Source: Chthonomonadales bacterium
Lineage (GTDB): Bacteria > Armatimonadota > Chthonomonadetes > Chthonomonadales > Chthonomonadaceae
DNA: 19,069 nucleotides
Reading direction: 5' to 3'
NCBI GenBank assembly: GCA_038217285.1
Contig: JBBQPO010000102.1
Coordinates: forward strand, 1-19,069
The position numbers and the translations under genes were made by a program. The notes beneath the pieces are model-generated. The model made no database searches. It had not been told where the DNA came from and saw only the letters and a list, made by a program, of their open reading frames with translations. The first letter of the stretch is position 1. Each line of letters opens with the position of its first letter. Below are positions 1,689-17,494 of the stretch, in pieces.

Positions 1689-1926
1689 GCCGGTCTGCCC
1701 ACCTCCACATATAAACTCACCTCGATGATACAATTGCTGTCATGCCTAATGAGAAGATCGCCTGGTTTGAACCTTTTCGCTTCGCGTCGTACCTCATAGA
1801 GAGAGTCCTAACACGCGGAGCGTCGAAGGTAAGCCGTCCACATTCGCGCAACCTCGACCAGCACGGTTCCGTTAGGAAGACAGAGCGATAGCCCAACTTT
1901 GCTTGCCGTTGGATCAAGGAGGCCCT

Positions 1927-4900
1927 ATGCTGCATCGATTGTCTGCGTGTATTGTCGTACTGCCGGTTCTGATGGGACTGCTTGGAACCGCTCCTCAACA
2001 CACATGCGAGGCCACACCGGCTCCGCCGCCCAACTTAATGCAGCTTCGAACGCAGTACGGTCTCACCCCCGCCGCCGAAAAGATACTGCTTCAGAACGGC
2101 TTTCTGGTGCTGGATCAGGTCCGCTACAAAACCCTGCGCGATGCCTATCCCCTGCAGCACCATGTCACACCCATGTACGTTACGACAGATGCGATGCTCG
2201 AACTCTGGTCTTCGCTCAACCGTGAACTCCTCAAATCGACCGAGCGTCAGGTCTGCATCAAACAGCTCTCCTCCCTTCTGCCCGCTCTCGAAACGAGAGC
2301 GAAGACACTCTATGAGGCCGCTCACGAGGAGAAAGAGCGGAAGGCGCTCCGGCAGGTTCTGGTGACCATCGCCGTCTCCTCGCGCCTCCTGATCGCAACC
2401 GGTCACGCCCCGCCCTACCCTCCGGCGCTTCGCTCCGAGATCGACGCACAGGTGCAAAAGGTGATGGCGCACAGCGAGGCGACGGAGTATCCCGGCGAGG
2501 ACTACACCCAGTACACCGTTCGCGGTCACTATGCCGACGATGCCGCTCTCTCTCGCTACTTCCGCGCTTCCATGTGGCTCAGCAGACGCTTCTTCTCGGT
2601 CACGCGCGAGGCCGGCGGCGATCCGGATGCCTCTCTGCGTGCCGCTGTGGCCTGCGCCGCTGTGGTGCGTTCGGCCGGGCCGGACACCGGAGACGCGTTA
2701 GCCGGCCTCATCAGGCTGCGGGAGACGCTGGCCGGTCCCCCCGATGCGATCTCCATTCCACAACTGATCGTGGCGCTGAACCGCTCTGTCGGCGTCGGCT
2801 GGAGACTGGACCGGGCGCTGCTGCCGACGTCTCTGGCCGCCCTGCGCCGCGAACTGGCGCGACCGATCTATCCGGTCAGTCAGGTGCGCACCCGGATCGT
2901 CTATGAGCTCGGAACACCTTTTCCAACGCAGACCGTTGCGGTGCTGCCTGGCATCGCCGTGCCCGACAGCGTACTGTTCAAGCAGACCGTGCATCCTGCC
3001 ATTCACGACCGCAATTTGCCGACCGGGTTGGAAGTCGCCGCCTCGCTCGGTTCGGAGGCGGCGCGCCTGGAGATCGCGCAGCAGGAGGGGAATCGTTCCA
3101 AAGAAGTGCTGGCGGCGGTGGACCGCTTCGGCGCGCCTCTGAAAGCGGACGATGGGACGACGATCTACTCCGGCTGGATGCATGCGCTGAGCACACTCTC
3201 TACGACGCCGAAGGGAGCGCCAGACTTTATGCGAAATTCGGCCTGGCAGGCGGAGAAGCTGAACACGACGCTGGCAGGCTGGGCACAGCTTCGGCACAAC
3301 TTTATCCTCTATGCCGGACAGAACTATTCCATGACCCAGGGCAAACAGTGGGAGGAACCCGCGCTTGTGGAGGCGAACCCGGCTTTCTACCACGCGATGG
3401 CGCAACTGGCGGGACGTACGCTCAAGATCCTGCAAACGGCCGGAGGAGTGGACCCGAAGCCCGCGAAGGAGCTTGCCGCCTACGCAGCGACATGTCGGGA
3501 GTTCGAAGTCTATGCCAGCGCGGAGCTGGCAGGAACGCTGACCCATTCACAATCGGTGGAGATCGACAAGTTCTGTGAACGGCTCGATCCGGCGTATACC
3601 GGCTCTGCCGCCGCGATGGTCGCCGATGTGGCCACAGGAATGGAAGCCGGGGCGGGACAGGGAGCCGAGGTGCTGCATGCGGCGACAGGAGATCTGCGCA
3701 CTCTGCTGGTGATCCCCGATCCGAAAACCGGCGTCGTCTATACCGGGGCGGTGCTCTCCTACTATGAGTTCGCGCGGAGCGGACAGGAACGGCTGACGGA
3801 TGCCCGGTGGCAGGCACAGCAGACGCAGACCTATCTCCGCCCGGAACCGCCCTCCTGGTCTTACGCGTTCATGGTGCCGGAATCCGGTGCGGAGTGGCAA
3901 GGGCGCGAGCCGTTGCGCGCTGCCGAAAAACTGCTCGTCAATAACCGCACGGAAGAGGGTCTGGCGCTGTTGCGAGCGACGGTAGAGAAGAACCCGGAGG
4001 CAGCGCTGGCGACGGAAGCGCAGTTGCGACTGGGGCGCACCTATTTCGACCGGCATGAGCTGCCGCAGGCGGAGAGGGAACTGCGACGGTGCGAGCGTCT
4101 GCCGGGCTGCGCTGCATTCGATCAGGCGCAGGAGCTGATAAGGCAGGTCCAGTCCGATCAGCAGAGACACGACTACGAACAGAACGTCCTGGCGCCTCTG
4201 CAGGCGAAAGGTCTGGCGGAGATAAAGAGGCTGCGGGATGCGGTCGAGACGTACCGGCGGCAGCCGTTGGATGCGGGCCGGGAGCGACTGCTGGTGCAGC
4301 GACTGATCCGCGAACTGCCCTGGGAGGAGGCGAGAAATCCGTGGCAGGCGGAAGTCAAAGCGCTGCTACGATCAACTCGAGCCGCAGTTCGGACGCCTCC
4401 GAGTCAGGATGCGATCGGCTACGCCCTGTTGGTCGCGGAGCACGGAGGGCGGTACAGCGTCGGTACCCGCGAAGGAGTTGACCGTGAGATCGCCTTCTCC
4501 CGCCGGGCGAACTCCCTGCCGCTGCGGGCTGCCGCGCTCAGCCTGGCGCTGGAAAACGGCTATCTCGCTGATCAGAATAAGGCGGCGCTGACTCTGCTGC
4601 AGCCATTTCTCAAAGCGCAGGTTCTCGATAACCATACGGATCCCGCCCTGCAGCTGATCTTGACGTCGCCGGGCCAGGGGATCACTTCGGACTCCTCCTC
4701 CGGGATCTCCTTTCGCACCGATCCCAGGAATCTGTTTCGTCAGCAGACCGCAAAAACGCTGATGGCGTTGGCTTCGGCCTCACTCGACGCGGGGCAGATC
4801 CGACAGGCGGTTCGGTACGCTCAACTCTATCCCAATCCCCAGTCCGGCGGAATGAACGGCGAGGAGTTCGGGCTCACGAGCACGATTCAGGAGTGGGGCT

Positions 4901-6867
4901 CCATTCCCGACGCGGATCTGCCGGCGGCCTCCATGCTGGCGGTTCTGCATGGACTGGAGAGCAAACACCGAGCGGAGGCCATGGCCGTCCAGGCGCTGTC
5001 CATGGTCCGGCGCTTTCCGCGCTCCCGTTACGCCCTGATCGCGTTGAGCGAGACGATCCGGGAGCTGCGAGGCGACGAGAATGCGGCGGAGGAGCTCAGG
5101 CTCAAGGCGGTTCTGTCTCACGACTATCCGAAAAGCATCCCGACCCTCTGTCTCGAGATTGAGACGGCTTTCTATCAGGGCGATCTGACGCGAACGCGAC
5201 GCCTGCTGGCGGACTATCAGTCCAGGAGCAAAGGCAGGGATAGCATCCAGAAGTTCGAGCAGGATCCTGTGGGCGTGGACAGCATCACCTACGGGCTCTC
5301 ACAATACGACAAGTTGGCGCAGCAGTTGAAGCCCCTGCTCGATGCCGGCCACGACCCCGAAATAGCGCGCCTGGTTCGAACCGAACCGACGGGGCAGGCG
5401 CTTGCCGAGACGCTCATCAAGCGCCTGCCCGATCGCGCCGCAGAGATCTATCTGAACCTGAGCGGCTTCTATCACGATCCCGCTCTCACCATGCGCTTTT
5501 TGGAGCGGTTTCCCGCCGATCCTCGCGCCGGAGAAGCCTGGAAGCGGCTGGTCGGTGAGGACCGCATGGTCACGCCCGGCGCGCTGAATTATGGCGGGCC
5601 GGAAGTTGTGGAGTGGCTGGCTCCCTTTGTCAATCGGAACGATGCAAACTCGCCTGCCGCCGCGAAGCTGCTGAAGAAGGTGATCGGTGAGGGCTATGGC
5701 GAAGCCGGGATTCGGCTTGCTCAGGAGGAGGCACGGATGGTGCAGGGGCGCTCTCCGCAGTCGCGAGCGTCCGGCGTGGCCGAACTGGCGGTGGCACAGA
5801 CACTGCTCAACAGTCACCACCCGGAGGCGATGCTGGCCTATGCCGACCGAGCGATGGCAGTCCTGGCGAAAGACGATCCCCTGCATCTGGAAGCGGGGCA
5901 GCTAAGGCAGCGCGCCATGCAGGAGATCGCCGCCAAGCACAGGCAGGACTGGCGCCCGCTCTGGGAGGCGACACTGCGGATGGAAGATGCCCATGCTCTC
6001 TCGGAAGCGCCTATGCCCGCCGTTGCCTACGGACTGTTGCTGGCGTCGGAGACCGACGAGAAAGGCATCCGTCAGTTGACGGCGGTGGAGACGGCAACCG
6101 GGGCAAGACGGTGGACCAGTCATCTGCAGTCGCCCCTGCTCGATTTCGTCGCTCCCACAGGCGGGGATGCGATCTACTGTGTGGAGGAGAAGGGCGCGGT
6201 CGTCGCGCTCGATCCACAGACGGGCCAGAAGCGATGGCGGCAGATGGTTCTTAGCGGACAGGAGGGCGAGCAGTTAGACGGGATCACGGGAACGGCCCAG
6301 GCGGTCGTCGTCTATGGCTCGAAAATGACGCGGGGCTTTCAGCGTACTGAGGACGACCATGTCGGGGTGATCGGGCTCTCCCCACAGGACGGCCATTCCC
6401 TCTGGCGGCATGCCGACTGGCATCTGCCCAAGGCGGGACGAACGGTGCAGGGGAAGTCGGCAGTCGTGAAGGATAAGATCGTCGTCGCCCTGGAGCCCGC
6501 CCAGGTGGTCGCCTTTCAGCCGAATACCGGCACGGTGATCTGGAAACATGCCTATCCGGATCCTGCACCGCTCGATCCCAATGCGCGAACAAGGAGGCAG
6601 ATCCCGACCCTGCTATTCCAGCCGCAGGCGTTCGAAGAAGGCCATGTGATGGTCTTCACCTTCCGGCCTTCCAGGCATTACGAGCTTCTGGACGGCCAGA
6701 CCGACGCCGTCTTGAAAACCATCGAGGCCCCGTCTGCCGAAAATGCGCCAAGCGGCCTCGTCGAGCGCCTTACCGCGCTCCCATCCGCCCACGAACTGTG
6801 TAAGCACAACCGACCACCCCTGTTCCGACATGTTCGCTCTCAGTTCTACACCCGCCCCCCAAAATAA
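1927..6867 (+). CDS. Large exported protein (~1646 aa): signal peptide, DUF3160 domain, TPR/helical region, C-terminal PQQ/BamB-like beta-propeller repeats
   Basis: AGGAGG at 1917-1922 and ATG 1927, with a hydrophobic N-terminus. DUF3160-type motifs: LLQNGF, PMYVTTDAML, EDYTQYTVRGHY, KLNTTLAGWAQLRHNFILY, GAVLSYYEF, RLTDARW. TPR-like ATEAQLRLGRTYF. Propeller repeats AVETATGARRW, ALDPQTGQKRW, GLSPQDGHSLW, AFQPNTGTVIW. Confidence 0.85.
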   Translation: MLHRLSACIVVLPVLMGLLGTAPQHTCEATPAPPPNLMQLRTQYGLTPAAEKILLQNGFLVLDQVRYKTLRDAYPLQHHVTPMYVTTDAMLELWSSLNRELLKSTERQVCIKQLSSLLPALETRAKTLYEAAHEEKERKALRQVLVTIAVSSRLLIATGHAPPYPPALRSEIDAQVQKVMAHSEATEYPGEDYTQYTVRGHYADDAALSRYFRASMWLSRRFFSVTREAGGDPDASLRAAVACAAVVRSAGPDTGDALAGLIRLRETLAGPPDAISIPQLIVALNRSVGVGWRLDRALLPTSLAALRRELARPIYPVSQVRTRIVYELGTPFPTQTVAVLPGIAVPDSVLFKQTVHPAIHDRNLPTGLEVAASLGSEAARLEIAQQEGNRSKEVLAAVDRFGAPLKADDGTTIYSGWMHALSTLSTTPKGAPDFMRNSAWQAEKLNTTLAGWAQLRHNFILYAGQNYSMTQGKQWEEPALVEANPAFYHAMAQLAGRTLKILQTAGGVDPKPAKELAAYAATCREFEVYASAELAGTLTHSQSVEIDKFCERLDPAYTGSAAAMVADVATGMEAGAGQGAEVLHAATGDLRTLLVIPDPKTGVVYTGAVLSYYEFARSGQERLTDARWQAQQTQTYLRPEPPSWSYAFMVPESGAEWQGREPLRAAEKLLVNNRTEEGLALLRATVEKNPEAALATEAQLRLGRTYFDRHELPQAERELRRCERLPGCAAFDQAQELIRQVQSDQQRHDYEQNVLAPLQAKGLAEIKRLRDAVETYRRQPLDAGRERLLVQRLIRELPWEEARNPWQAEVKALLRSTRAAVRTPPSQDAIGYALLVAEHGGRYSVGTREGVDREIAFSRRANSLPLRAAALSLALENGYLADQNKAALTLLQPFLKAQVLDNHTDPALQLILTSPGQGITSDSSSGISFRTDPRNLFRQQTAKTLMALASASLDAGQIRQAVRYAQLYPNPQSGGMNGEEFGLTSTIQEWGSIPDADLPAASMLAVLHGLESKHRAEAMAVQALSMVRRFPRSRYALIALSETIRELRGDENAAEELRLKAVLSHDYPKSIPTLCLEIETAFYQGDLTRTRRLLADYQSRSKGRDSIQKFEQDPVGVDSITYGLSQYDKLAQQLKPLLDAGHDPEIARLVRTEPTGQALAETLIKRLPDRAAEIYLNLSGFYHDPALTMRFLERFPADPRAGEAWKRLVGEDRMVTPGALNYGGPEVVEWLAPFVNRNDANSPAAAKLLKKVIGEGYGEAGIRLAQEEARMVQGRSPQSRASGVAELAVAQTLLNSHHPEAMLAYADRAMAVLAKDDPLHLEAGQLRQRAMQEIAAKHRQDWRPLWEATLRMEDAHALSEAPMPAVAYGLLLASETDEKGIRQLTAVETATGARRWTSHLQSPLLDFVAPTGGDAIYCVEEKGAVVALDPQTGQKRWRQMVLSGQEGEQLDGITGTAQAVVVYGSKMTRGFQRTEDDHVGVIGLSPQDGHSLWRHADWHLPKAGRTVQGKSAVVKDKIVVALEPAQVVAFQPNTGTVIWKHAYPDPAPLDPNARTRRQIPTLLFQPQAFEEGHVMVFTFRPSRHYELLDGQTDAVLKTIEAPSAENAPSGLVERLTALPSAHELCKHNRPPLFRHVRSQFYTRPPK

Positions 6868-7238: not shown

Positions 7239-7322
7239 TTCAAGGTGGTACGACAGCGCTCATGCGCGTCCTGAGTCTTGTCTATAAGCGCAAAGAGGGC
7301 ACTCGCTAGCCGTAAGGGTCAT
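7226..7322 (-). pseudogene. Frameshifted and truncated PIN/VapC toxin remnant
   Basis: ATG at 7322 overlaps the antitoxin TGA (ATGA). Reads MTLT, then after a 1-nt shift ASALFALIDKTQDAHERCRTTLK, matching a VapC N-terminus (MxLxDaSALxALxDxxDxxHxxC). Runs into a TGA inside the 7198-7238 palindrome. Confidence 0.7.
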
Positions 7323-7609
7323 TCTTTAAACCCCAACTTGCGGTATTTTTTGTCCATAATCTCCGCAAAGGCTGCTTCGGTCTGATCGCCACTGGGAAAC
7401 CTGGTCGGCTTCTCGAAGGCGATAGTATCAAGGTTGTCGAAGAACAGTTCGAACTTCGCCTGTAGTGCGGCTTGGTCCGGCCCGTTTGTGGCCTCAACCC
7501 GTACCTGGACTTCATCTCCTGGATGAAGGCCGAGTTCTTCGACAGCCTCGCTGGGAATGGTAAGGGAACCGTCGTCTTTCAATTTCGATGCGAAAGTGAT
7601 TGCTGTCAT
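7319..7609 (-). CDS. AbrB/MazE/SpoVT-family DNA-binding antitoxin (start 7609 or 7621)
   Basis: SKLKDDGSLTIPSEAVEELGLHPGDEVQVRV is a swapped-hairpin signature. AGGAAAGG lies upstream, with TGGTATACT extended -10 at 7650-7642. Confidence 0.85.
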   Translation of the reverse strand: MTAITFASKLKDDGSLTIPSEAVEELGLHPGDEVQVRVEATNGPDQAALQAKFELFFDNLDTIAFEKPTRFPSGDQTEAAFAEIMDKKYRKLGFKE

Positions 7610-7856
7610 CGTAAACGTCATCCTTTCCTGGGCTATCAATCAGTATACCAAAGATGTCCTTCACGATAAGATGATGAAGTGCTGACGCCGGTGTGGTGGG
7701 CAGGGCTCATCGATGCCGCCTTCCGCCTGATGGCGGCAGGAACGTGTGATGACGGCTGGCTCCTGAAGTCGCTGTTGCGACGCTCTCCGCTTATGGGGGC
7801 CGGATTCGCGGGAGTTCACGTAAGCGAGGCTATCGAACTTTCTGGAGGCTTGTCCG

Positions 7857-11734: not shown

Positions 11735-12982
11735 GTGGTCGAACTCCACGCATTTACGCCGTCTCCTACGGCGGAACGATCCGTCGCCCCGGCGGGCGAG
11801 ACGGCAGCGCTCGACGTCCCGGAGCGAGCGAATATCGTGTTGCCGACGCGTCCGCGAACGCTGATTCTGACGGCCTCGATAGGCAACGGGCATGTGACCG
11901 CTGCCGCCGCTCTCGAGCAGGCGATGCGCCAACACGATATGGAAGTGCGCACCCTGGACATCATAGATCTGGTGTCGCCTGCCTTTCGTGCCTGGTATAA
12001 AGGCGGCTATGAGGCGCTCGTTCGCCGCGCTCCCCGGCTCTGGGGCGCGCTCTATCGTCTGACGGACACCCGCTCGCCCCTCTATACCATGCAGTCCCAG
12101 ATGGATCTGCGCGCCTTCTCACGCCTCACCGAATTTTTAGACGCCTACAACCCTGAGCTCGTCGTCTGCCCGCACTATCTGCCTCTCCCGCGCCTGGCCC
12201 GTTACTACCGCGACTATCGCGGCCCCCTGCCGAAAATCGCCACCGTGCTCACCGACGTCTATCCACACCGGTTCTGGCTCGGCGGACGCTCGGATCACTT
12301 CTTCGTTCCGAACGACCACTCCCGGCAGGTGCTGGAACGCCGCCGCCCGGAGTTCAAAGGCCATGTCTCGACGACCGGGATTCCTATCGACCCACTGTTC
12401 GGAGAGCAGGAGCCGCCCTGCGCCGCCCGAACGCGACTGGGCCTCGATCCGGCGCTGCCGACCCTGCTCGTGACTTCGGGCGGAATCGGCGGCGGACCCT
12501 TGCGGGAGGTGACCGAGGCGCTGGCGGCGCTGGACCGGCCCTGTCAGGTGGTCATCGTCTGTGGGCGCAACGAAGTCGCCTACCGGATGCTATGCCAGAC
12601 CATCGAGGAGTTGGCGCCGAAGACGAAAGTGAGCTTTGTTCCGAAGGGACTTGTCTCCCGCGACGAGATGGCAGGGCTTATGCGGGCCAGCGATCTGTTG
12701 ATCGGAAAACCGGGCGGGGCGACTTTTTCCGAGGCGCTCGCCAGCGGAGTCCCTATGCTCATCTACTCGCCTCTGATGATACCGGGGCAGGAGGAGAGCA
12801 ACGCCGACTATCTGATGGAGAGCGGCACGGCGCTGCGTGTCGAAGCCCCGGATGAACTGACCACACGCGCCAATGCGCTGCTCGATGCTCCCCGGGAACT
12901 GGAAAGGATGCGCTGTAACTCCCTGCGTGTCAGCCAGCCCGATGCCGCCCACGATATCGTCAAAATACTGCTCGAACTATAG
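11735..12982 (+). CDS. MGDG-synthase/UgtP-like GT28 diacylglycerol glycosyltransferase
   Basis: LILTASIGNGHVTAAAAL, PELVVCPHYLP, TVLTD, TGIPI, VIVCGRN, DLLIGKPGGATFSEALASGVPM, IPGQEESNA. GAGGAGG RBS before GTG 11735. Confidence 0.9.
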   Translation: MVELHAFTPSPTAERSVAPAGETAALDVPERANIVLPTRPRTLILTASIGNGHVTAAAALEQAMRQHDMEVRTLDIIDLVSPAFRAWYKGGYEALVRRAPRLWGALYRLTDTRSPLYTMQSQMDLRAFSRLTEFLDAYNPELVVCPHYLPLPRLARYYRDYRGPLPKIATVLTDVYPHRFWLGGRSDHFFVPNDHSRQVLERRRPEFKGHVSTTGIPIDPLFGEQEPPCAARTRLGLDPALPTLLVTSGGIGGGPLREVTEALAALDRPCQVVIVCGRNEVAYRMLCQTIEELAPKTKVSFVPKGLVSRDEMAGLMRASDLLIGKPGGATFSEALASGVPMLIYSPLMIPGQEESNADYLMESGTALRVEAPDELTTRANALLDAPRELERMRCNSLRVSQPDAAHDIVKILLEL

Positions 12983-13063
12983 CCCGTCCGAGCCCCTCCC
13001 GGATCCAGGGGAGGAAGATCATGGTAGTAGAGAGAGCGTTCTGACGGACACACCCTTTCGATG

Positions 13064-14638
13064 TCAGGAGATTCCCTGTGCCCAGGGAGCGATGGCGACG
13101 ATATGGCGCATCTCGTCCGGTGTCATTCCCAGCAGCGGCGCGCCCTCGATGACGTCCTGCAGATCGACGCCGTACCAGTTCCGCTTGCGCGGGTCGCACA
13201 GTCCGGCGATATTGAGGCAGACGGCGCTCCGGGCCACTTGTTGTGCAAAATCTTGCAGGTCTTGCGCGGAAGCCTCCCGTGTGTAGTCATGCATAAGGCG
13301 GGCGCACTGCCTCACTCCCTCCGCAAAGAGGATGCGATCTGCCGCCAGGTAACGCTGCAGCTGCGGGGCGTTGGGTAGTCGGTGTGCCATCTCTGCGTAG
13401 CTGACCGCCGCGAAGTAGAACATGGAGAAGGCGCTGAACAGCGGAAAGGTCGCCATACCGGCGTAACTGGCGGCCATAAAATGAGCCGTCCAGTCGGCCT
13501 CCTGCCGTGTGATCGTGCCGTACTCCGCGATACGGGGCGCGAACGCCTCTGTCCCCCAGGTCTCTTCCAGTATGCGGCCCAGACGCTCGATGCCGAGCAG
13601 GGTGAGCGGCATACCGGTGCTGAAGAGCGGATCGACGAAGGCGGCGGCGGATGGCAGCAGCGCCCAGCCCGGCCCGGTCACGGTCTCGACCCGCGAGGCG
13701 AGACGCGGCGCATAGACAAACGGCTGCACCGGAGTAGCCCCGGCGAACTGCGCCTCGATGGAGGGGAAGCGGCGCAGAAAACGACGCCAGGCGGCTTCCG
13801 TACCTTCCAGTTCCAACTCCTCCGCGAGCCATGCCTCGACCGCGCACCCCGCACTCGTCACCCCATTGTTGAATCGCAGCACCCACATCCAGCCGCCGTC
13901 AAAGACATGGTGCAGCGCCGCGTCATCGAGAGGATAGGGAGGTGTCTCCGCAGTGCGATAGGCAGGCATCGAGGCGCAGCGCGGAACGCCCGTAAAATGC
14001 GAGTAGAGGGCACGGGTCGCCGGATAGCCCGGAAAGATTCCGTGCGGCAGAGGCAGGGTTCGGGTGAGAAACCCGCCCGGCCCGCTCGCATCCACCACAA
14101 AGCGCGTCGTCAGTCGGAACGCCTCTCCCGCTCGTGTTCCCTCCAGCACGGAGCCTTCGACCGCAAAAGTGCCGCCGCTCAAATCCACGTCGTCCCGATA
14201 ATCGACGCCAAGCGCGATGGCCTCCCGCACCAGAAAGGCATCCACATCGGCGCGCAGCCAGTGGGTGTCTCCAACCTCATCGTTGGGGCTTGCCGTGACC
14301 AGCAGTTGATTGGAGCGATCCGCCGCCGCTTCGTAAGGCCGGTGCGCCACATGATGGAAATAGGTGAAGCCGCGTTTCAGTCCGCAGCCGATCTCGGGAT
14401 AGGCGCGCTGCCAGGCGCCGTAGGTCGTGAGCGGAAGAAGGCGAGGCAGATCATAGCGCTGGGCGAGCTGTTCGATTAGAAGATTCATCAGCGGCGACGT
14501 CGATTCGCCGATGGCAAAACGTGGATGCCGCCCGCGTTCCAATAACGCGACCGACAACCCTACCCGCCGCGCGACCATCGCGAGCAGCGTCCCCCCAAAC
14601 CCCGACCCAATGATCGTCAGATCGAAATCTGTCTTCAT
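13064..14638 (-). CDS. FAD-dependent halogenase, PrnC-like, 524 aa
   Basis: GSGFGG FAD loop, HPRFAIGES, GCGLKRGF (candidate catalytic Lys), HWLRADVDAFL, HHVFDGGWMWVLRF (WxWxI-type motif), AAAFVDPLFSTG. True start is ATG 14638 (MKTDFDLTIIG). Confidence 0.85.
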   Translation of the reverse strand: MKTDFDLTIIGSGFGGTLLAMVARRVGLSVALLERGRHPRFAIGESTSPLMNLLIEQLAQRYDLPRLLPLTTYGAWQRAYPEIGCGLKRGFTYFHHVAHRPYEAAADRSNQLLVTASPNDEVGDTHWLRADVDAFLVREAIALGVDYRDDVDLSGGTFAVEGSVLEGTRAGEAFRLTTRFVVDASGPGGFLTRTLPLPHGIFPGYPATRALYSHFTGVPRCASMPAYRTAETPPYPLDDAALHHVFDGGWMWVLRFNNGVTSAGCAVEAWLAEELELEGTEAAWRRFLRRFPSIEAQFAGATPVQPFVYAPRLASRVETVTGPGWALLPSAAAFVDPLFSTGMPLTLLGIERLGRILEETWGTEAFAPRIAEYGTITRQEADWTAHFMAASYAGMATFPLFSAFSMFYFAAVSYAEMAHRLPNAPQLQRYLAADRILFAEGVRQCARLMHDYTREASAQDLQDFAQQVARSAVCLNIAGLCDPRKRNWYGVDLQDVIEGAPLLGMTPDEMRHIVAIAPWAQGIS

Positions 14639-14658
14639 CTCATCCTTTCCTGCTTTCC

Positions 14659-15669
14659 TCAATTCCTGCCTTCCTGCTCGAACTCTTCCCCGCAGACGGT
14701 GCAGACGACCGGCGGAGAGATCTGTTGTGTTCGGTTCATTGTCGCGATTCGGGCGATACGGGCGGGCGCGCAGGCGCAGCGAGCGAAGGCTTCGATATCC
14801 CAGAGGTCCGCGAACACACGCCCACTTTTTAATCGCAGCCCATACTCCTGCGCCGCCTCCAGAGAACGAAGAGCCGGAAGCGCGAAGAGACCGCTCCGGG
14901 CGAGCCTGTCCAGCGCGCCGTTCCCGGCGCGGGTGGGGATCAGGCAGCAGACGGTCGCGCCGCACTCGAAGGCGACATCGAGCGAGCGGCAGGCCCACTC
15001 CACGCCTTCCGCCTCTGTCATAAACGGAGGCCGGAGCAGCAGAAAGACCCGCATGTCGATGTCGTTGTTGCCCAAAAGGGCAGCGCTGCGGCGAAAATCC
15101 CCGACCGTGAACCGCTTGTTCAGACGTTCTAAAGTGGGCTCGTGCGCCGTCTCCAACCCGAGAGCGACTTCGAGCTTTCCGGACAGACGCTGCGCGAACT
15201 GGAGGCAGCGCTCACCCACCAGGGCCGGATGGCACTCCACGATCACCCGCTCGAAACCGGCGACGAGGCGGGCAATCTCAGCATCGTCTTCGGGCGGGAT
15301 CGCCTGGTTGTCGAAGAAGCTGCCGGCATTATACAACTTGATCTGGCGCGCGGCCGGCAGGCGTTCGAGCGCCCAGGCGATCTGCGTGGGAATAGCGCCG
15401 AGGGGGACGCGACTGTCCAGTGTGTTCTTCCAGAGGTCGCACATCAGGCAGCGATAAGGGCACTCCCGATTGGTCAGGAAGAGCGTCGCGGTCGGTATCC
15501 GTTCGCCGGACGCGCCGACCTCTTCCTCCCACAGATAGGCATAGGGAATCCGTGGATCGAGCGCGTTTTTGGGGCCACGCTGCGCTTCGATCCAGCGTGT
15601 GCGCGCGGCGGCCCGATCCGGATAGATCAGGGCCGCCGCGCTAGCGTTGGAGAGAGAATCGGCAGGCAT
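14659..15669 (-). CDS. Radical SAM enzyme, RaSEA (archaeosine synthesis lyase, TIGR01210)-like, 336 aa
   Basis: CPYRCLMC (CxxxCxxC), IKLYNAGSFFD, VIVECHP, LEVALGLETA...LNKRFT and FLLLRPPFMTEAE mirror recalled RaSEA motifs (KIFTSGSFLD, EVAIGLET..INKGFT, YLLLKPPFLSE). ATG 15669 overlaps the upstream TGA (TGATG). Confidence 0.85.
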   Translation of the reverse strand: MPADSLSNASAAALIYPDRAAARTRWIEAQRGPKNALDPRIPYAYLWEEEVGASGERIPTATLFLTNRECPYRCLMCDLWKNTLDSRVPLGAIPTQIAWALERLPAARQIKLYNAGSFFDNQAIPPEDDAEIARLVAGFERVIVECHPALVGERCLQFAQRLSGKLEVALGLETAHEPTLERLNKRFTVGDFRRSAALLGNNDIDMRVFLLLRPPFMTEAEGVEWACRSLDVAFECGATVCCLIPTRAGNGALDRLARSGLFALPALRSLEAAQEYGLRLKSGRVFADLWDIEAFARCACAPARIARIATMNRTQQISPPVVCTVCGEEFEQEGRN

Positions 15670-17060
15670 CAGCGAACCGGCTGCAGCGAAGCCGGGACGA
15701 CATTGCCGGAAAGCCGCTCGTTCTGCGGATCCCAGGCCTCTTTCAGCCGATCTTCCCACTGCCGCAGGAAGGTGTGACGGCACCATGTCTTGCTGACGCG
15801 CCACGCCCGATAGCTTTCGCCGCCGACGCCGTCTTGGAATCGACGCTTCGGATAGGCGGGCATCTCGATCCCGATCACAGCCTCGATCCCCGCCTGCACC
15901 ACCTGCTGCTTGAGGGCGTAGAGCCGTTCCACGCTGCCGTCCAGCACAGTCTCGAACGGAATGGCCAGAGCCGCCGCCATCACGGAGCGCATCGTATAGG
16001 GAGAGAGCGCCTCGAAGCCGTACTGCTTCGCGGGGGCGTAGGTGCGGACATAGGCGCGCGAGAGGCCACCGGAGTAGGTCAGACTGTGCTTCATATTCTC
16101 GACACCCCAGCCCTCCTGGTAGAGCATCGGGTTGCGCAGGACGCTCGACAGAGTGAGGTCGGAGTCTTCGAGTGGGTACGATTTCAGGTTCTCGTCGCCG
16201 CCATCGCCATCCAGGAGATATTTGAGGTTCGGGTAGCGCTCCCGAATGCCTTCCAGCAGGCAGAGCGCGACCGCCGCGCACTCCACGTCCAGCGGATGAT
16301 AGTCCTCGATCACCCGAATCGCGGCCTCCAGGTTCACGCGCTCGGCGGGCATGCGGATCGCCTCCCACTGCGCTTCCAGCCCCAACTCTTTGACCACCGC
16401 TTCGGCCTGTGCCGCGTCCTTGCCGCCGCCCAGATCGAGGGTAAAGGCCCGCAGCAGGCCGGAATCACGGCCGAGTTCCTGCAGCGCATGGCGGGCCAAC
16501 AGGAAGACAGAGGTGCTGTCGATGCCGCCGGAGAAGGCCAGACCCACCATCTCCCCATCCGGCAGAGAGGCCAGCCAGCGCTTCAGCGTCTCGTATGTCG
16601 CCCCAATGTAAGCGGCGCCTGCGGCCTCCAGATCCGCCGGGCCGGTTCCGATAGGCGGATTGAAGAAGCGATGATAACGGGGAGCAGGATCCGGACAGCC
16701 GATCTGATCGATCTCGACAAGATAGTGCGCCGGCACCATGCGCGTGTAGAGCGGATCGAACTGCCAGCCGATCTTCTCCTTCTCGCACCATTCGAACAGG
16801 CTGTCGATGCGATCCGAGACCAGCAGGAACGGACCATGAAACATCTTGGCGACGAAGTAGCGCAGTGGGACGCCGATGGTTCGCGCCAGCCGCACGGTCT
16901 GCCCATCCCGCGCCACTGCCGCAAAATGGCCATCACTGGCCGCAAGCGTCGCCAGATCGGCACTCTGCACGGCATTGCGAATATCACTGCCCGTAAACGG
17001 CGTCAGGGCGGCGGTATGCGTTCCCGTCAAATCTACAAGGCGTTCCACACCAGCTAACAT
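15669..17060 (-). CDS. Asparagine-synthetase-like ATP-dependent amide ligase with degenerate glutaminase domain, 463 aa
   Basis: PP-loop LAFSGGIDSTS, LLDGDGGDE, PKRRFQDG; Ntn-fold remnant GHFAAVARDGQTVRLARTIGVPLRYF. No N-terminal Cys (starts MLAGVERL). AGAGGAG RBS before ATG 17060. Confidence 0.85.
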   Translation of the reverse strand: MLAGVERLVDLTGTHTAALTPFTGSDIRNAVQSADLATLAASDGHFAAVARDGQTVRLARTIGVPLRYFVAKMFHGPFLLVSDRIDSLFEWCEKEKIGWQFDPLYTRMVPAHYLVEIDQIGCPDPAPRYHRFFNPPIGTGPADLEAAGAAYIGATYETLKRWLASLPDGEMVGLAFSGGIDSTSVFLLARHALQELGRDSGLLRAFTLDLGGGKDAAQAEAVVKELGLEAQWEAIRMPAERVNLEAAIRVIEDYHPLDVECAAVALCLLEGIRERYPNLKYLLDGDGGDENLKSYPLEDSDLTLSSVLRNPMLYQEGWGVENMKHSLTYSGGLSRAYVRTYAPAKQYGFEALSPYTMRSVMAAALAIPFETVLDGSVERLYALKQQVVQAGIEAVIGIEMPAYPKRRFQDGVGGESYRAWRVSKTWCRHTFLRQWEDRLKEAWDPQNERLSGNVVPASLQPVR

Positions 17061-17093
17061 CGGCTTTCTCCTCTGATGACGATGATTCCCTTT

Positions 17094-17104
17094 ATGATAC
17101 GGCA
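17094..17104 (-). promoter_or_regulatory. Putative -10 element (TGCCGTATCAT) for the three-gene operon
   Basis: TATCAT at 17099-17094, 33 nt before ATG 17060. Same context as other candidate -10 boxes in the window. Confidence 0.4.
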
Positions 17105-17135
17105 AATTTCGACGCGAACGATGCAGTTTCCTACG

Positions 17136-17210
17136 AGGCAGAGCAGGAAATTCAAGGCAGAGCAGAAGAGGCAGAGCAGGAAGGCAGGAAGAAAGGAAGG
17201 CAGGAAAAAA
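17136..17210 (+). repeat. Purine-rich short tandem repeats
   Basis: AGGCAGAGCAG three times (17136, 17155, 17169), then period-8 units AGCAGGAA GGCAGGAA GAAAGGAA GGCAGGAA (17175-17206). Confidence 0.75.
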
Positions 17211-17248
17211 TGTACAAGAAAGACAGGGAGAAGGTGCCTCGGCCAACT

Positions 17249-17494
17249 CTACTGAGTGTTGTGTCGCGAAAGCCAGGTTTCCAGATCGACCGACGTCTTG
17301 AACTCGAAGAGTGCTTCTCCAAGGTCATTGAGTTGTTCGGAGGACAGGTGATTGAGTCGCTCCGTAATCCCGGAAGAGACGGAGCCAAAACGACGGTGAA
17401 TCAGATGGGCAATAATCTCTTCTTTCCCCTCCTGTATGCCTTCCTCTTTGCCCTCTTCCCAACCTTTTCTCACCCACGGGTTCATCAGTTCCAT
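17249..17494 (-). CDS. Putative in-frame internal small protein (RpnS-like intragenic antitoxin), 81 aa
   Basis: AAGGAGG (17506-17500), 5 nt, then in-frame ATG 17494, exactly at the start of the C-terminal domain (MELMNPWVRKGWEEG...). Confidence 0.6.
   Translation of the reverse strand: MELMNPWVRKGWEEGKEEGIQEGKEEIIAHLIHRRFGSVSSGITERLNHLSSEQLNDLGEALFEFKTSVDLETWLSRHNTQ

Follow-up and report, generated by a model that had tools for sequence, protein, structure and literature searches.

A widespread gene pair for an asparagine-synthetase-fold enzyme and a RaSEA/MnmL-clade radical SAM enzyme, with a proposed role in nitrogen transfer

The closest described system is the pairing of ArcS with RaSEA in archaeosine synthesis (PMC11298593): ArcS attaches lysine, after which RaSEA removes the lysine skeleton, with ArcS using lysine and not NH4+, asparagine or glutamine and being active only when complexed with RaSEA. 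A second system is MnmL/YhcC, which converts 5-carboxymethylaminomethyl-2-thiouridine (cmnm5s2U) to 5-aminomethyl-2-thiouridine (nm5s2U) through removal of a glycine-derived carboxymethyl group (10.64898/2026.05.18.725915). Both enzymes strip an amino-acid carbon skeleton off a nitrogen attached earlier, and they are the only characterised relatives of a radical S-adenosylmethionine (SAM) enzyme encoded on contig JBBQPO010000102.1 of a Chthonomonadales bacterium (assembly GCA_038217285.1). The stretch of that contig analysed here, 19,069 nucleotides (nt) in full, is referred to as the window. Within it the radical SAM gene, labelled B, stands between the gene of an AsnB-fold enzyme, labelled A, and that of a flavin halogenase homologue, labelled C. 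By analogy with the systems above it is tentatively proposed that A joins an amino acid to a carboxylate, that B trims the adduct to the nitrogen and that C, where present, halogenates a ring, a proposal to which we give a real chance, if somewhat short of an even one. The cassette is laid out as follows.

15669..17060, minus strand: gene A, predicted ATP enzyme of the AsnB/beta-lactam-synthetase fold with a PP-loop, 463 amino acids (aa); from its open reading frame (ORF), Pfam and NCBIfam matches, alignment, model and Foldseek
14659..15669, minus strand: gene B, putative RaSEA/MnmL-clade radical SAM enzyme, 336 aa; from its ORF, NCBIfam matches and alignment
13064..14638, minus strand: gene C, homologue of PltM/CtcP-type flavin-dependent halogenases, 524 aa; from its ORF, Pfam match, solved relatives and alignment
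15667..15671, minus strand: TGATG stop/start overlap of A and B (A TGA at 15671-15669, B ATG at 15669-15667, one base in common)
14639..14658, minus strand: spacer of 20 nt between B and C, containing the Shine-Dalgarno-like stretch GGAAAGGA, from inspection of the sequence

An earlier note on this DNA had described three co-oriented genes, the first two coupled through TGATG and the third starting 20 nt further on, between unrelated flanking genes. All of this holds: A, B and C lie on the minus strand at these coordinates, the shared base of A and B is 15669, the spacer runs from 14658 to 14639, and the neighbours in the window look unrelated, being a UvrA paralogue, a monogalactosyldiacylglycerol (MGDG)-synthase-like glycosyltransferase converging on C and, upstream of A on the same strand, a DUF4351/Transposase_31 (Rpn-like) gene that ends at 17249. 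The exact sequences and lengths of the A, B and C proteins are all present in a public protein collection.

Relatives of B are numerous. Homologues number more than 8000 in a set of 5.8 billion proteins, the best 120 at 65-94% identity, an exhaustive search of cluster representatives returned 1606 matches (363 at E<=1e-30), and relatives turned up in at least 589 species genomes. Counts of loci given here and below refer to the best 80 loci among these species genomes, one genome being scanned per species; 38 come from Acidobacteriota, 20 from Bacteroidota, 8 from Armatimonadota, 6 from Verrucomicrobiota, 5 from Planctomycetota and 3 from other groups. A immediately precedes B in 78 of the 80 (the exceptions being L008 and L056), with a median distance from stop to stop of 971 nt (74 loci), and C lies directly downstream of B in 55, with a median distance from stop to stop of 1568 nt, and is absent from 25. 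Co-occurrence by genome was counted in 201 Armatimonadota genomes and in 201 Acidobacteriota genomes, the latter including one unpublished genome (G234), and these figures are associations and not a test statistic, since related genomes are not independent. In the Armatimonadota, B is found in 31 genomes and C in 31, both together in 30; one further genome, 88% complete, has B without C, and another has C without B. Several of the 30 carry B and C on separate contigs or at a distance of 30-70 kilobases (kb) from each other. A profile of C at E<=1e-20 found no match in five A-B genomes, four of Bacteroidota and that of Singulisphaera sp. PoT, and A-B is therefore the conserved core, translationally coupled and almost never separated, to which C is a lineage-dependent add-on. 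The earlier note had asked for a search for conservation of the trio across phyla; the trio does recur across phyla, but its third member is not constant. In sum of distribution, the cassette is widespread and patchy, occurring in at least five phyla and in hundreds of soil and water bacteria, with Singulisphaera sp. PoT (A-B), Granulicella sp. L46 and Acidobacteriaceae bacterium KBS 96 as cultured carriers.

The B protein carries a CPYRCLMC cluster motif (CX3CX2C), whose C70, C74 and C77 are invariant in the alignment of 29 sequences, and a C-terminal Cys-rich tail. It matches the RaSEA family TIGR01210 at 6.3e-26 (91.3 bits, under the cut-off of 212.15) and the MnmL/YhcC (MnmL/YtqA) family TIGR01212 at 3.9e-4, again below the cut-off; a search by sequence found no solved relative. 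On these sequence matches B belongs to the RaSEA/MnmL clade of radical SAM enzymes, and the RaSEA-like identity first read from the window is upheld by the TIGR01210 match and the cluster motif. The gene pair resembles ArcS-RaSEA in that a putative nitrogen-attaching enzyme is coupled with a radical SAM enzyme of the same clade, there in a complex and here in overlapping adjacent genes. It differs in that A would be an ATP-dependent ligase of the AsnB fold and not a tRNA-guanine transglycosylase (TGT)-like ArcS, and in that the hosts are bacteria and not Euryarchaeota; no ArcS/TGT-like gene was seen adjoining B in the 80 loci, 78 of which have a PF00733 enzyme as neighbour. MnmL/YhcC also takes an amino-acid-derived carbon unit off a nitrogen, as is proposed for B, but B resembles it only remotely, and it is known to act on transfer RNA (tRNA).

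The A protein is matched by PF00733 (Asn_synthase) at 4.6e-15, in the PP-loop half only, and scores 44.1 bits against the AsnB family TIGR01536, short of the cut-off of 267.1. Its N-terminus reads MLAGVERL and no conserved N-terminal Cys nucleophile is present among the 33 aligned sequences, so that A cannot produce its own ammonia. The PP-loop motif is present as FSGGIDS, and the same alignment gives FSGGxDS, GCPDP (Cys122), DGDGGDENLK, HSLTYSGGLSR and KRRFQ as family invariants. A model built from 33 orthologues (predicted local distance difference test, pLDDT, 83; predicted template modelling score, pTM, 0.86) retrieved beta-lactam synthetase 1mbz as its best Foldseek match (E 1.2e-13, template modelling score, TM, 0.60), and also carbapenam synthetase (CarA, 1q19), E. 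coli AsnB, human ASNS and TsnB9. The alignments to beta-lactam synthetase, CarA, AsnB and ASNS span 450-474 columns, and hence both domains, at 13-21% identity, and the model has the two parts that mark the AsnB superfamily fold, an N-terminal domain like those of the N-terminal-nucleophile (Ntn) enzymes and a PP-loop (SGGxDS) C-terminal domain; a Protein Atlas look-up gave only 'asparagine synthase' cluster names. Judged from this model, A is a two-domain PP-loop enzyme of the AsnB/beta-lactam-synthetase fold and of the adenylating type. The description of A as an asparagine-synthetase homologue that lacks the glutaminase Cys is thus confirmed by PF00733, by Foldseek and by the alignment of 33 sequences. 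With beta-lactam and carbapenam synthetases, AsnB and TsnB9 it has in common the two-domain fold, a glutaminase site that is inactive or absent and the PP-loop adenylating domain; it differs in having invariant motifs of its own and in sharing only the 13-21% identity just given, and no clavam or carbapenem genes lie nearby.

These structural matches raise the possibility of a lactam-forming natural-product cassette, in which A would form an amide within one molecule, B would carry out radical chemistry of another kind, such as C-C bond formation, methylation or epimerisation, and C would halogenate the scaffold. Both of the top matches of A, beta-lactam synthetase (1mbz) and carbapenam synthetase, are likewise without the glutaminase Cys, and the nearest solved relatives of C work on free small aromatic molecules. 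Such a cassette is nevertheless unlikely on three grounds: the characterised relatives of B are all C-N-cleaving; the Bacteroidota and Armatimonadota versions of A and B share 44-55% identity, an unusually close match for enzymes of secondary metabolism; and no conserved polyketide synthase (PKS), non-ribosomal peptide synthetase or amino-acid tailoring gene lies beside the cassette in the 80 loci.

Under the ligate-then-trim proposal, A would adenylate a small-molecule carboxylate and couple it with the amino group of an amino acid, and B, probably complexed with A, would cut the C-N bond of that amino acid radically to leave a primary amide or an equivalent nitrogen. C, where present, would halogenate an electron-rich ring on the same molecule, and the product or a precursor of it would be tied to exported TPR/FG-GAP/UnbV lipoproteins and, in some lineages, also to an UnbU/RnfD-like membrane protein and binding-protein-dependent transporters. 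Ligation followed by trimming is suggested because A lacks an ammonia source and the characterised relatives of B remove an amino-acid skeleton; the tie to exported proteins and transporters is suggested because the cassette often adjoins or co-occurs with them, the cassette itself being a cytoplasmic enzyme set. It is conceivable by analogy, if rather unlikely, that the whole scheme applies, with A-B as a bacterial counterpart of ArcS-RaSEA that acts on small molecules and uses an asparagine-synthetase scaffold for glutamine-independent amidation, and whose product, sometimes halogenated, works with an exported module of the UnbV/UnbU type, a pair on which enediyne pathways also depend.

The C protein is matched by PF04820 at 2.5e-9, with 37 bits against a gathering score of 21, and contains GSGFGG (GxGxxG). 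Its best solved relatives are PltM (3.4e-45) and CtcP, the tetracycline 7-halogenase (9.6e-45). All 29 orthologues have Lys88, within GLKRGF, which lines up with the lysine of CGIKLGF in PltM, a position that we take to be the conserved active-site lysine of flavin-dependent halogenases, presumably with the catalytic role assigned to that residue. C therefore resembles halogenases of the PltM/CtcP/PrnC type in the GxGxxG motif, the aligned lysine and E values of about 1e-45; it departs from PltM and CtcP in an altered WxWxIP motif, taken up below, and in that no flavin reductase adjoins it.

Clustering of the ORFs of the 80 loci identified four recurrent kinds of neighbour: a protein of about 1190 aa with TPR, FG-GAP and weak UnbV_ASPIC domains; an FG-GAP and UnbV_ASPIC protein of about 560-640 aa; a membrane protein of about 290 aa that weakly matches the NQR2/RnfD family, in 28 of the loci; and an ATP-binding cassette (ABC) importer of the NrtA/SsuA type or, in Bacteroidota, a binding protein of the LivJ/AmiC type. 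The neighbourhood search for extra partner genes for which the earlier note had called has thus turned up exported FG-GAP/UnbV proteins. Their genes lie within 8 kb of the cassette in 47 of the 80 loci (Acidobacteriota 32/38, Bacteroidota 13/20, Planctomycetota 1/5, Armatimonadota 0/8, Verrucomicrobiota 0/6 and one other), and their orders are conserved in three phyla. The orders are given below, with numbers denoting protein size.

Bacteroidota: binding protein, 1187, 560, A, B
Singulisphaera: 1170, 626, membrane protein, A, B
Blastocatellia, on a single strand: 600 (FG-GAP/UnbV), UnbU/RnfD-like membrane protein, ABC permease, ATPase, NrtA/SsuA-like binding protein, A, B, C
Acidobacteriaceae: A, B, C converging on ~620, membrane protein, ~600, large protein

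In the genome from which the window comes, an orthologue of the protein of about 1190 aa is encoded on another contig; it is 44% identical to an Acidobacterium protein and has a lipoprotein-like signal. At a threshold of E<=1e-60 such an orthologue is present in 29 of the 31 B-positive Armatimonadota genomes and in 7 of the 170 B-negative ones, and at the strict variant of E<=1e-170 in 25/31 and 6/170 respectively. A second check that scored every candidate still gave none in the two remaining B-positive genomes, whose completeness is 69% and 86%. Each of the five B-positive genomes of other phyla that were tested carries one orthologue. The link of A-B(-C) to exported TPR/FG-GAP/UnbV proteins is new in this analysis, and it is general but partial. 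The C-terminal 470 aa of the large protein were modelled as beta-sandwich domains; a function based on fold was sought for them and discarded, since the only matches, to jelly-roll, discoidin, CBM32 and PNGase F-like structures, were weak, with a TM of at most 0.21. In Bacteroidales the operon extends further upstream, to an HZS-alpha-like protein, a di-haem CCP/MauG-like propeller protein, a Rid-family protein, binding proteins and a DAHP-synthase-family enzyme. As general partners these were rejected: queries with the HZS-alpha-like protein, the Rid protein and one binding protein found nothing in the genome of the window (E<=1e-8), and the extras are for this reason regarded as lineage-specific additions.

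Given these neighbours, it is possible that the system handles an external compound, for salvage or catabolism, which would be captured by the exported FG-GAP/UnbV proteins together with a binding-protein transporter and converted by A-B-C in the cytoplasm. The Blastocatellia loci, with FG-GAP/UnbV, UnbU/RnfD-like, permease, ATPase, binding protein, A, B and C on one strand, are consistent with this, as are the LivJ/AmiC-type binding protein that opens the Bacteroidota loci and the weak resemblance of the C-terminal 470 aa of the large protein to binding-type domains of the jelly-roll/discoidin-like kind. However, transporter genes are present in a minority of loci only and none adjoins the cassette in the window, and biosynthesis, rather than breakdown, is the usual setting of ATP-dependent amide ligases and of halogenases; uptake is accordingly considered very unlikely.

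The exported propeller proteins with which the cassette co-occurs could instead be its substrates, in a maturation of peptides or proteins that would install a protein-derived cofactor or cross-link in an exported protein, comparable with that by the radical SAM enzyme QhpD and the flavin hydroxylase QhpG in quinohemoprotein amine dehydrogenase or with the AsnB-like lasso-peptide cyclases. C matches the QhpG flavin mono-oxygenase family NF049967 at 6.2e-16, A weakly matches a macrolactam cyclase family, and the Bacteroidales operon includes the di-haem MauG/CCP-like propeller protein and the Rid-family protein. This is distinctly unlikely all the same: the match of C to QhpG reaches 58.3 bits where the cut-off is 240, and C is far nearer PltM/CtcP (1e-45); the large propeller protein is missing from 8 of the 17 B-positive Acidobacteriota genomes; and beside the cassette in the 80 loci there is no conserved intergenic reading frame of 20-90 aa, so that a precursor peptide was not found there, nor any conserved PqqD/RRE-like, protease or exporter gene.

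Several findings weigh against the ligate-then-trim proposal, or against parts of it. The folds closest to A, those of beta-lactam and carbapenam synthetases, close rings and do not ligate a second molecule. B scores far under the cut-offs of both RaSEA and MnmL, and its reaction could for that reason differ from those of its relatives. WxWxIP is a hallmark motif of flavin-dependent halogenases, and C has GWMWVLRF at this place: WxWxL[RKQHN] replaces WxWxIP in 29 of the 29 orthologues, with L254 invariant, whereas PltM and CtcP keep IP. Moreover, C matches the hydroxylase QhpG as well as it does CmlS, both at about 1e-16 and far under the cut-offs, and by sequence it may be a mono-oxygenase. 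Halogenation by C is likely but not assured, because it keeps the lysine position and not WxWxIP; the PrnC-like halogenase of the earlier note is thus right as to family (PF04820, the PltM and CtcP matches, the lysine) and lacks the motif. As to the exported partners, four of the 29 Armatimonadota matches to the large protein are weaker (E 1e-82 to 1e-101) and may be paralogues, and in the Acidobacteriota (E<=1e-100) B is found in 17 genomes and the large protein in 17, with an overlap of 9; with all candidates scored, no large protein was found in eight of the B-positive genomes, and eight others have it without B. None of the exported or transport partners adjoins the cassette in the window. 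Finally, ten long B-containing proteins were found, six with an Asn_synthase domain, three with halogenase-type domains and one with neither, and all of the fused proteins are singletons; since the genes overlap, the A-B and B-C fusions could be frameshift artefacts and are given little weight.

One further fusion candidate, P0265 (B with FG-GAP/UnbV, 896 aa), was set aside as probably two merged genes, there being a lipoprotein-signal-like stretch at the junction. In the Bacteroidales genome G202 a second A-B copy (L085:6000-13323) has A and B as one frame of 756 aa with fragmented FG-GAP genes upstream, and is either a decaying copy or the result of assembly indel errors. In Verrucomicrobiota loci without C (L043:8019-12289), B is followed by genes for a hexapeptide transferase, ApbE (a flavin transferase), a DCC1-like thiol oxidoreductase, LpxK and a lipid A acyltransferase.

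The earlier reading had also allowed for a tRNA or nucleoside substrate, and of its parts this has the least support. Modification of tRNA or another nucleic acid, as by RaSEA and MnmL/YhcC, is suggested by both characterised relatives of B, which act on tRNA; PP-loop enzymes, furthermore, often activate nucleobases. A tRNA substrate of the ArcS-RaSEA kind is argued against by the distribution and the partners of the cassette. The cassette is patchily distributed, with B in 31 of the 201 Armatimonadota genomes and in 17 of the 201 from Acidobacteriota, and it is accompanied by a halogenase homologue of the small-molecule type and by exported proteins, with no ArcS/TGT-like neighbour in the 80 loci. 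In addition, the two AsnB domains account for the full length of A, which has no extra RNA-binding domain. A nucleic-acid substrate is therefore given little probability, and the ligation and trimming of a small molecule remains the preferred reading.

The UnbV_ASPIC domain is named after UnbV of the enediyne clusters, and the names of the UnbV/UnbU (E4/E5) pair of those clusters reportedly go back to Zazopoulos and co-workers in 2003; to our knowledge the role of the pair in enediyne biosynthesis is still unexplained. By sequence, the protein pair adjoining A-B-C is of the UnbV/UnbU kind: here as there, a protein with an UnbV_ASPIC domain stands beside a membrane protein of the RnfD family. 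The enediyne clusters differ in their PKS, none of that type being found alongside A-B-C. The only homologue of the membrane protein of about 290 aa in the genome of the window is 27-32% identical and lies on another contig, where it forms part of a cassette of the enediyne type:

Genome G000, contig C32, L083:537-10385: DUF1702 (PF08012, 3.2e-119), FG-GAP/UnbV, RnfD-family membrane protein and a 1944-aa PKS with ketosynthase, acyltransferase and ketoreductase (KS-AT-KR) domains

The acyltransferase domain of this PKS matches DynE8 (1e-53). A link between the enediyne PKS and the trio was considered and rejected, given that the C-terminal half of the PKS is found in one of the 201 Armatimonadota genomes (G000 only) and B in 31.

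Full-text literature searches, which leave out subscription-only papers, found no published description of the cassette, in agreement with the earlier statement that no characterised pathway with this trio was known; a RiPP review and an ammosamide paper that came up are unrelated to it, judging by their abstracts. If the ligate-then-trim proposal were true, it would represent a second, independent use of an amino acid as nitrogen donor with radical trimming, outside tRNA modification and on a different ligase scaffold. With carriers in hundreds of species, from little-studied phyla of soils, sediments and the sea, the cassette may yield an ecologically common product, possibly an organohalogen that has so far escaped notice, and the tie to exported proteins of the UnbV/UnbU type would provide a new handle on the protein pair associated with enediynes.

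The remaining features around the cassette are as follows.

17061..17248, minus strand: non-coding gap of 188 nt 5' of A, with CU-rich tandem repeats on the operon strand, from the sequence
12970..12993, minus strand: terminator-like hairpin with a T-rich tail, 70 nt past the C stop, by consensus match only
17165..17212, no strand: upstream arm of a 48-nt inverted repeat, 39/48 complementary
14641..14688, no strand: second arm of the same repeat, 39/48 complementary, which takes in the last part of B and the ribosome-binding site of C

The promoter of its own with which the trio had been credited could not be substantiated: a scan for sigma-70 consensus sites over 12800-17400 of the window, with shuffles for expectation, found none in the 188-nt gap upstream of A, and the sole match of the scan falls within C, with 0.8 expected from the shuffles. 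Transcription into A may occur by read-through from the upstream gene on the same strand. Known RNA elements, riboswitches included, were likewise discounted, with 0 Rfam matches at gathering scores in the window and seven related loci and 0 at E<=1 in 12800-17400. Imperfect tandem repeats of 16-19 nt, AGGCAGAGCAGGAA-like on the plus strand, occupy most of the gap upstream of A (17136-17232). The pairing of the inverted repeat (39/48) compares with a best of 34/48 among 30 dinucleotide shuffles, and within a single transcript it could fold the CU-rich leader of A onto the last part of B and the ribosome-binding site of C; as a conserved regulator the repeat was rejected, being missing from the same-genus genome G087. 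In the G087 locus (L086) a gene for a 319-aa ankyrin-repeat protein is inserted between B and C (L086:3334-4293), and inverted repeats resembling miniature inverted-repeat transposable elements lie upstream of A. Elsewhere in the window, at 1903-6867 on the plus strand, a 1654-aa protein combines DUF3160 (1.7e-96) with a PQQ_2/BamB-like propeller, and PIN and MazE-like genes lie near it at 992-1420 and 7319-7639.

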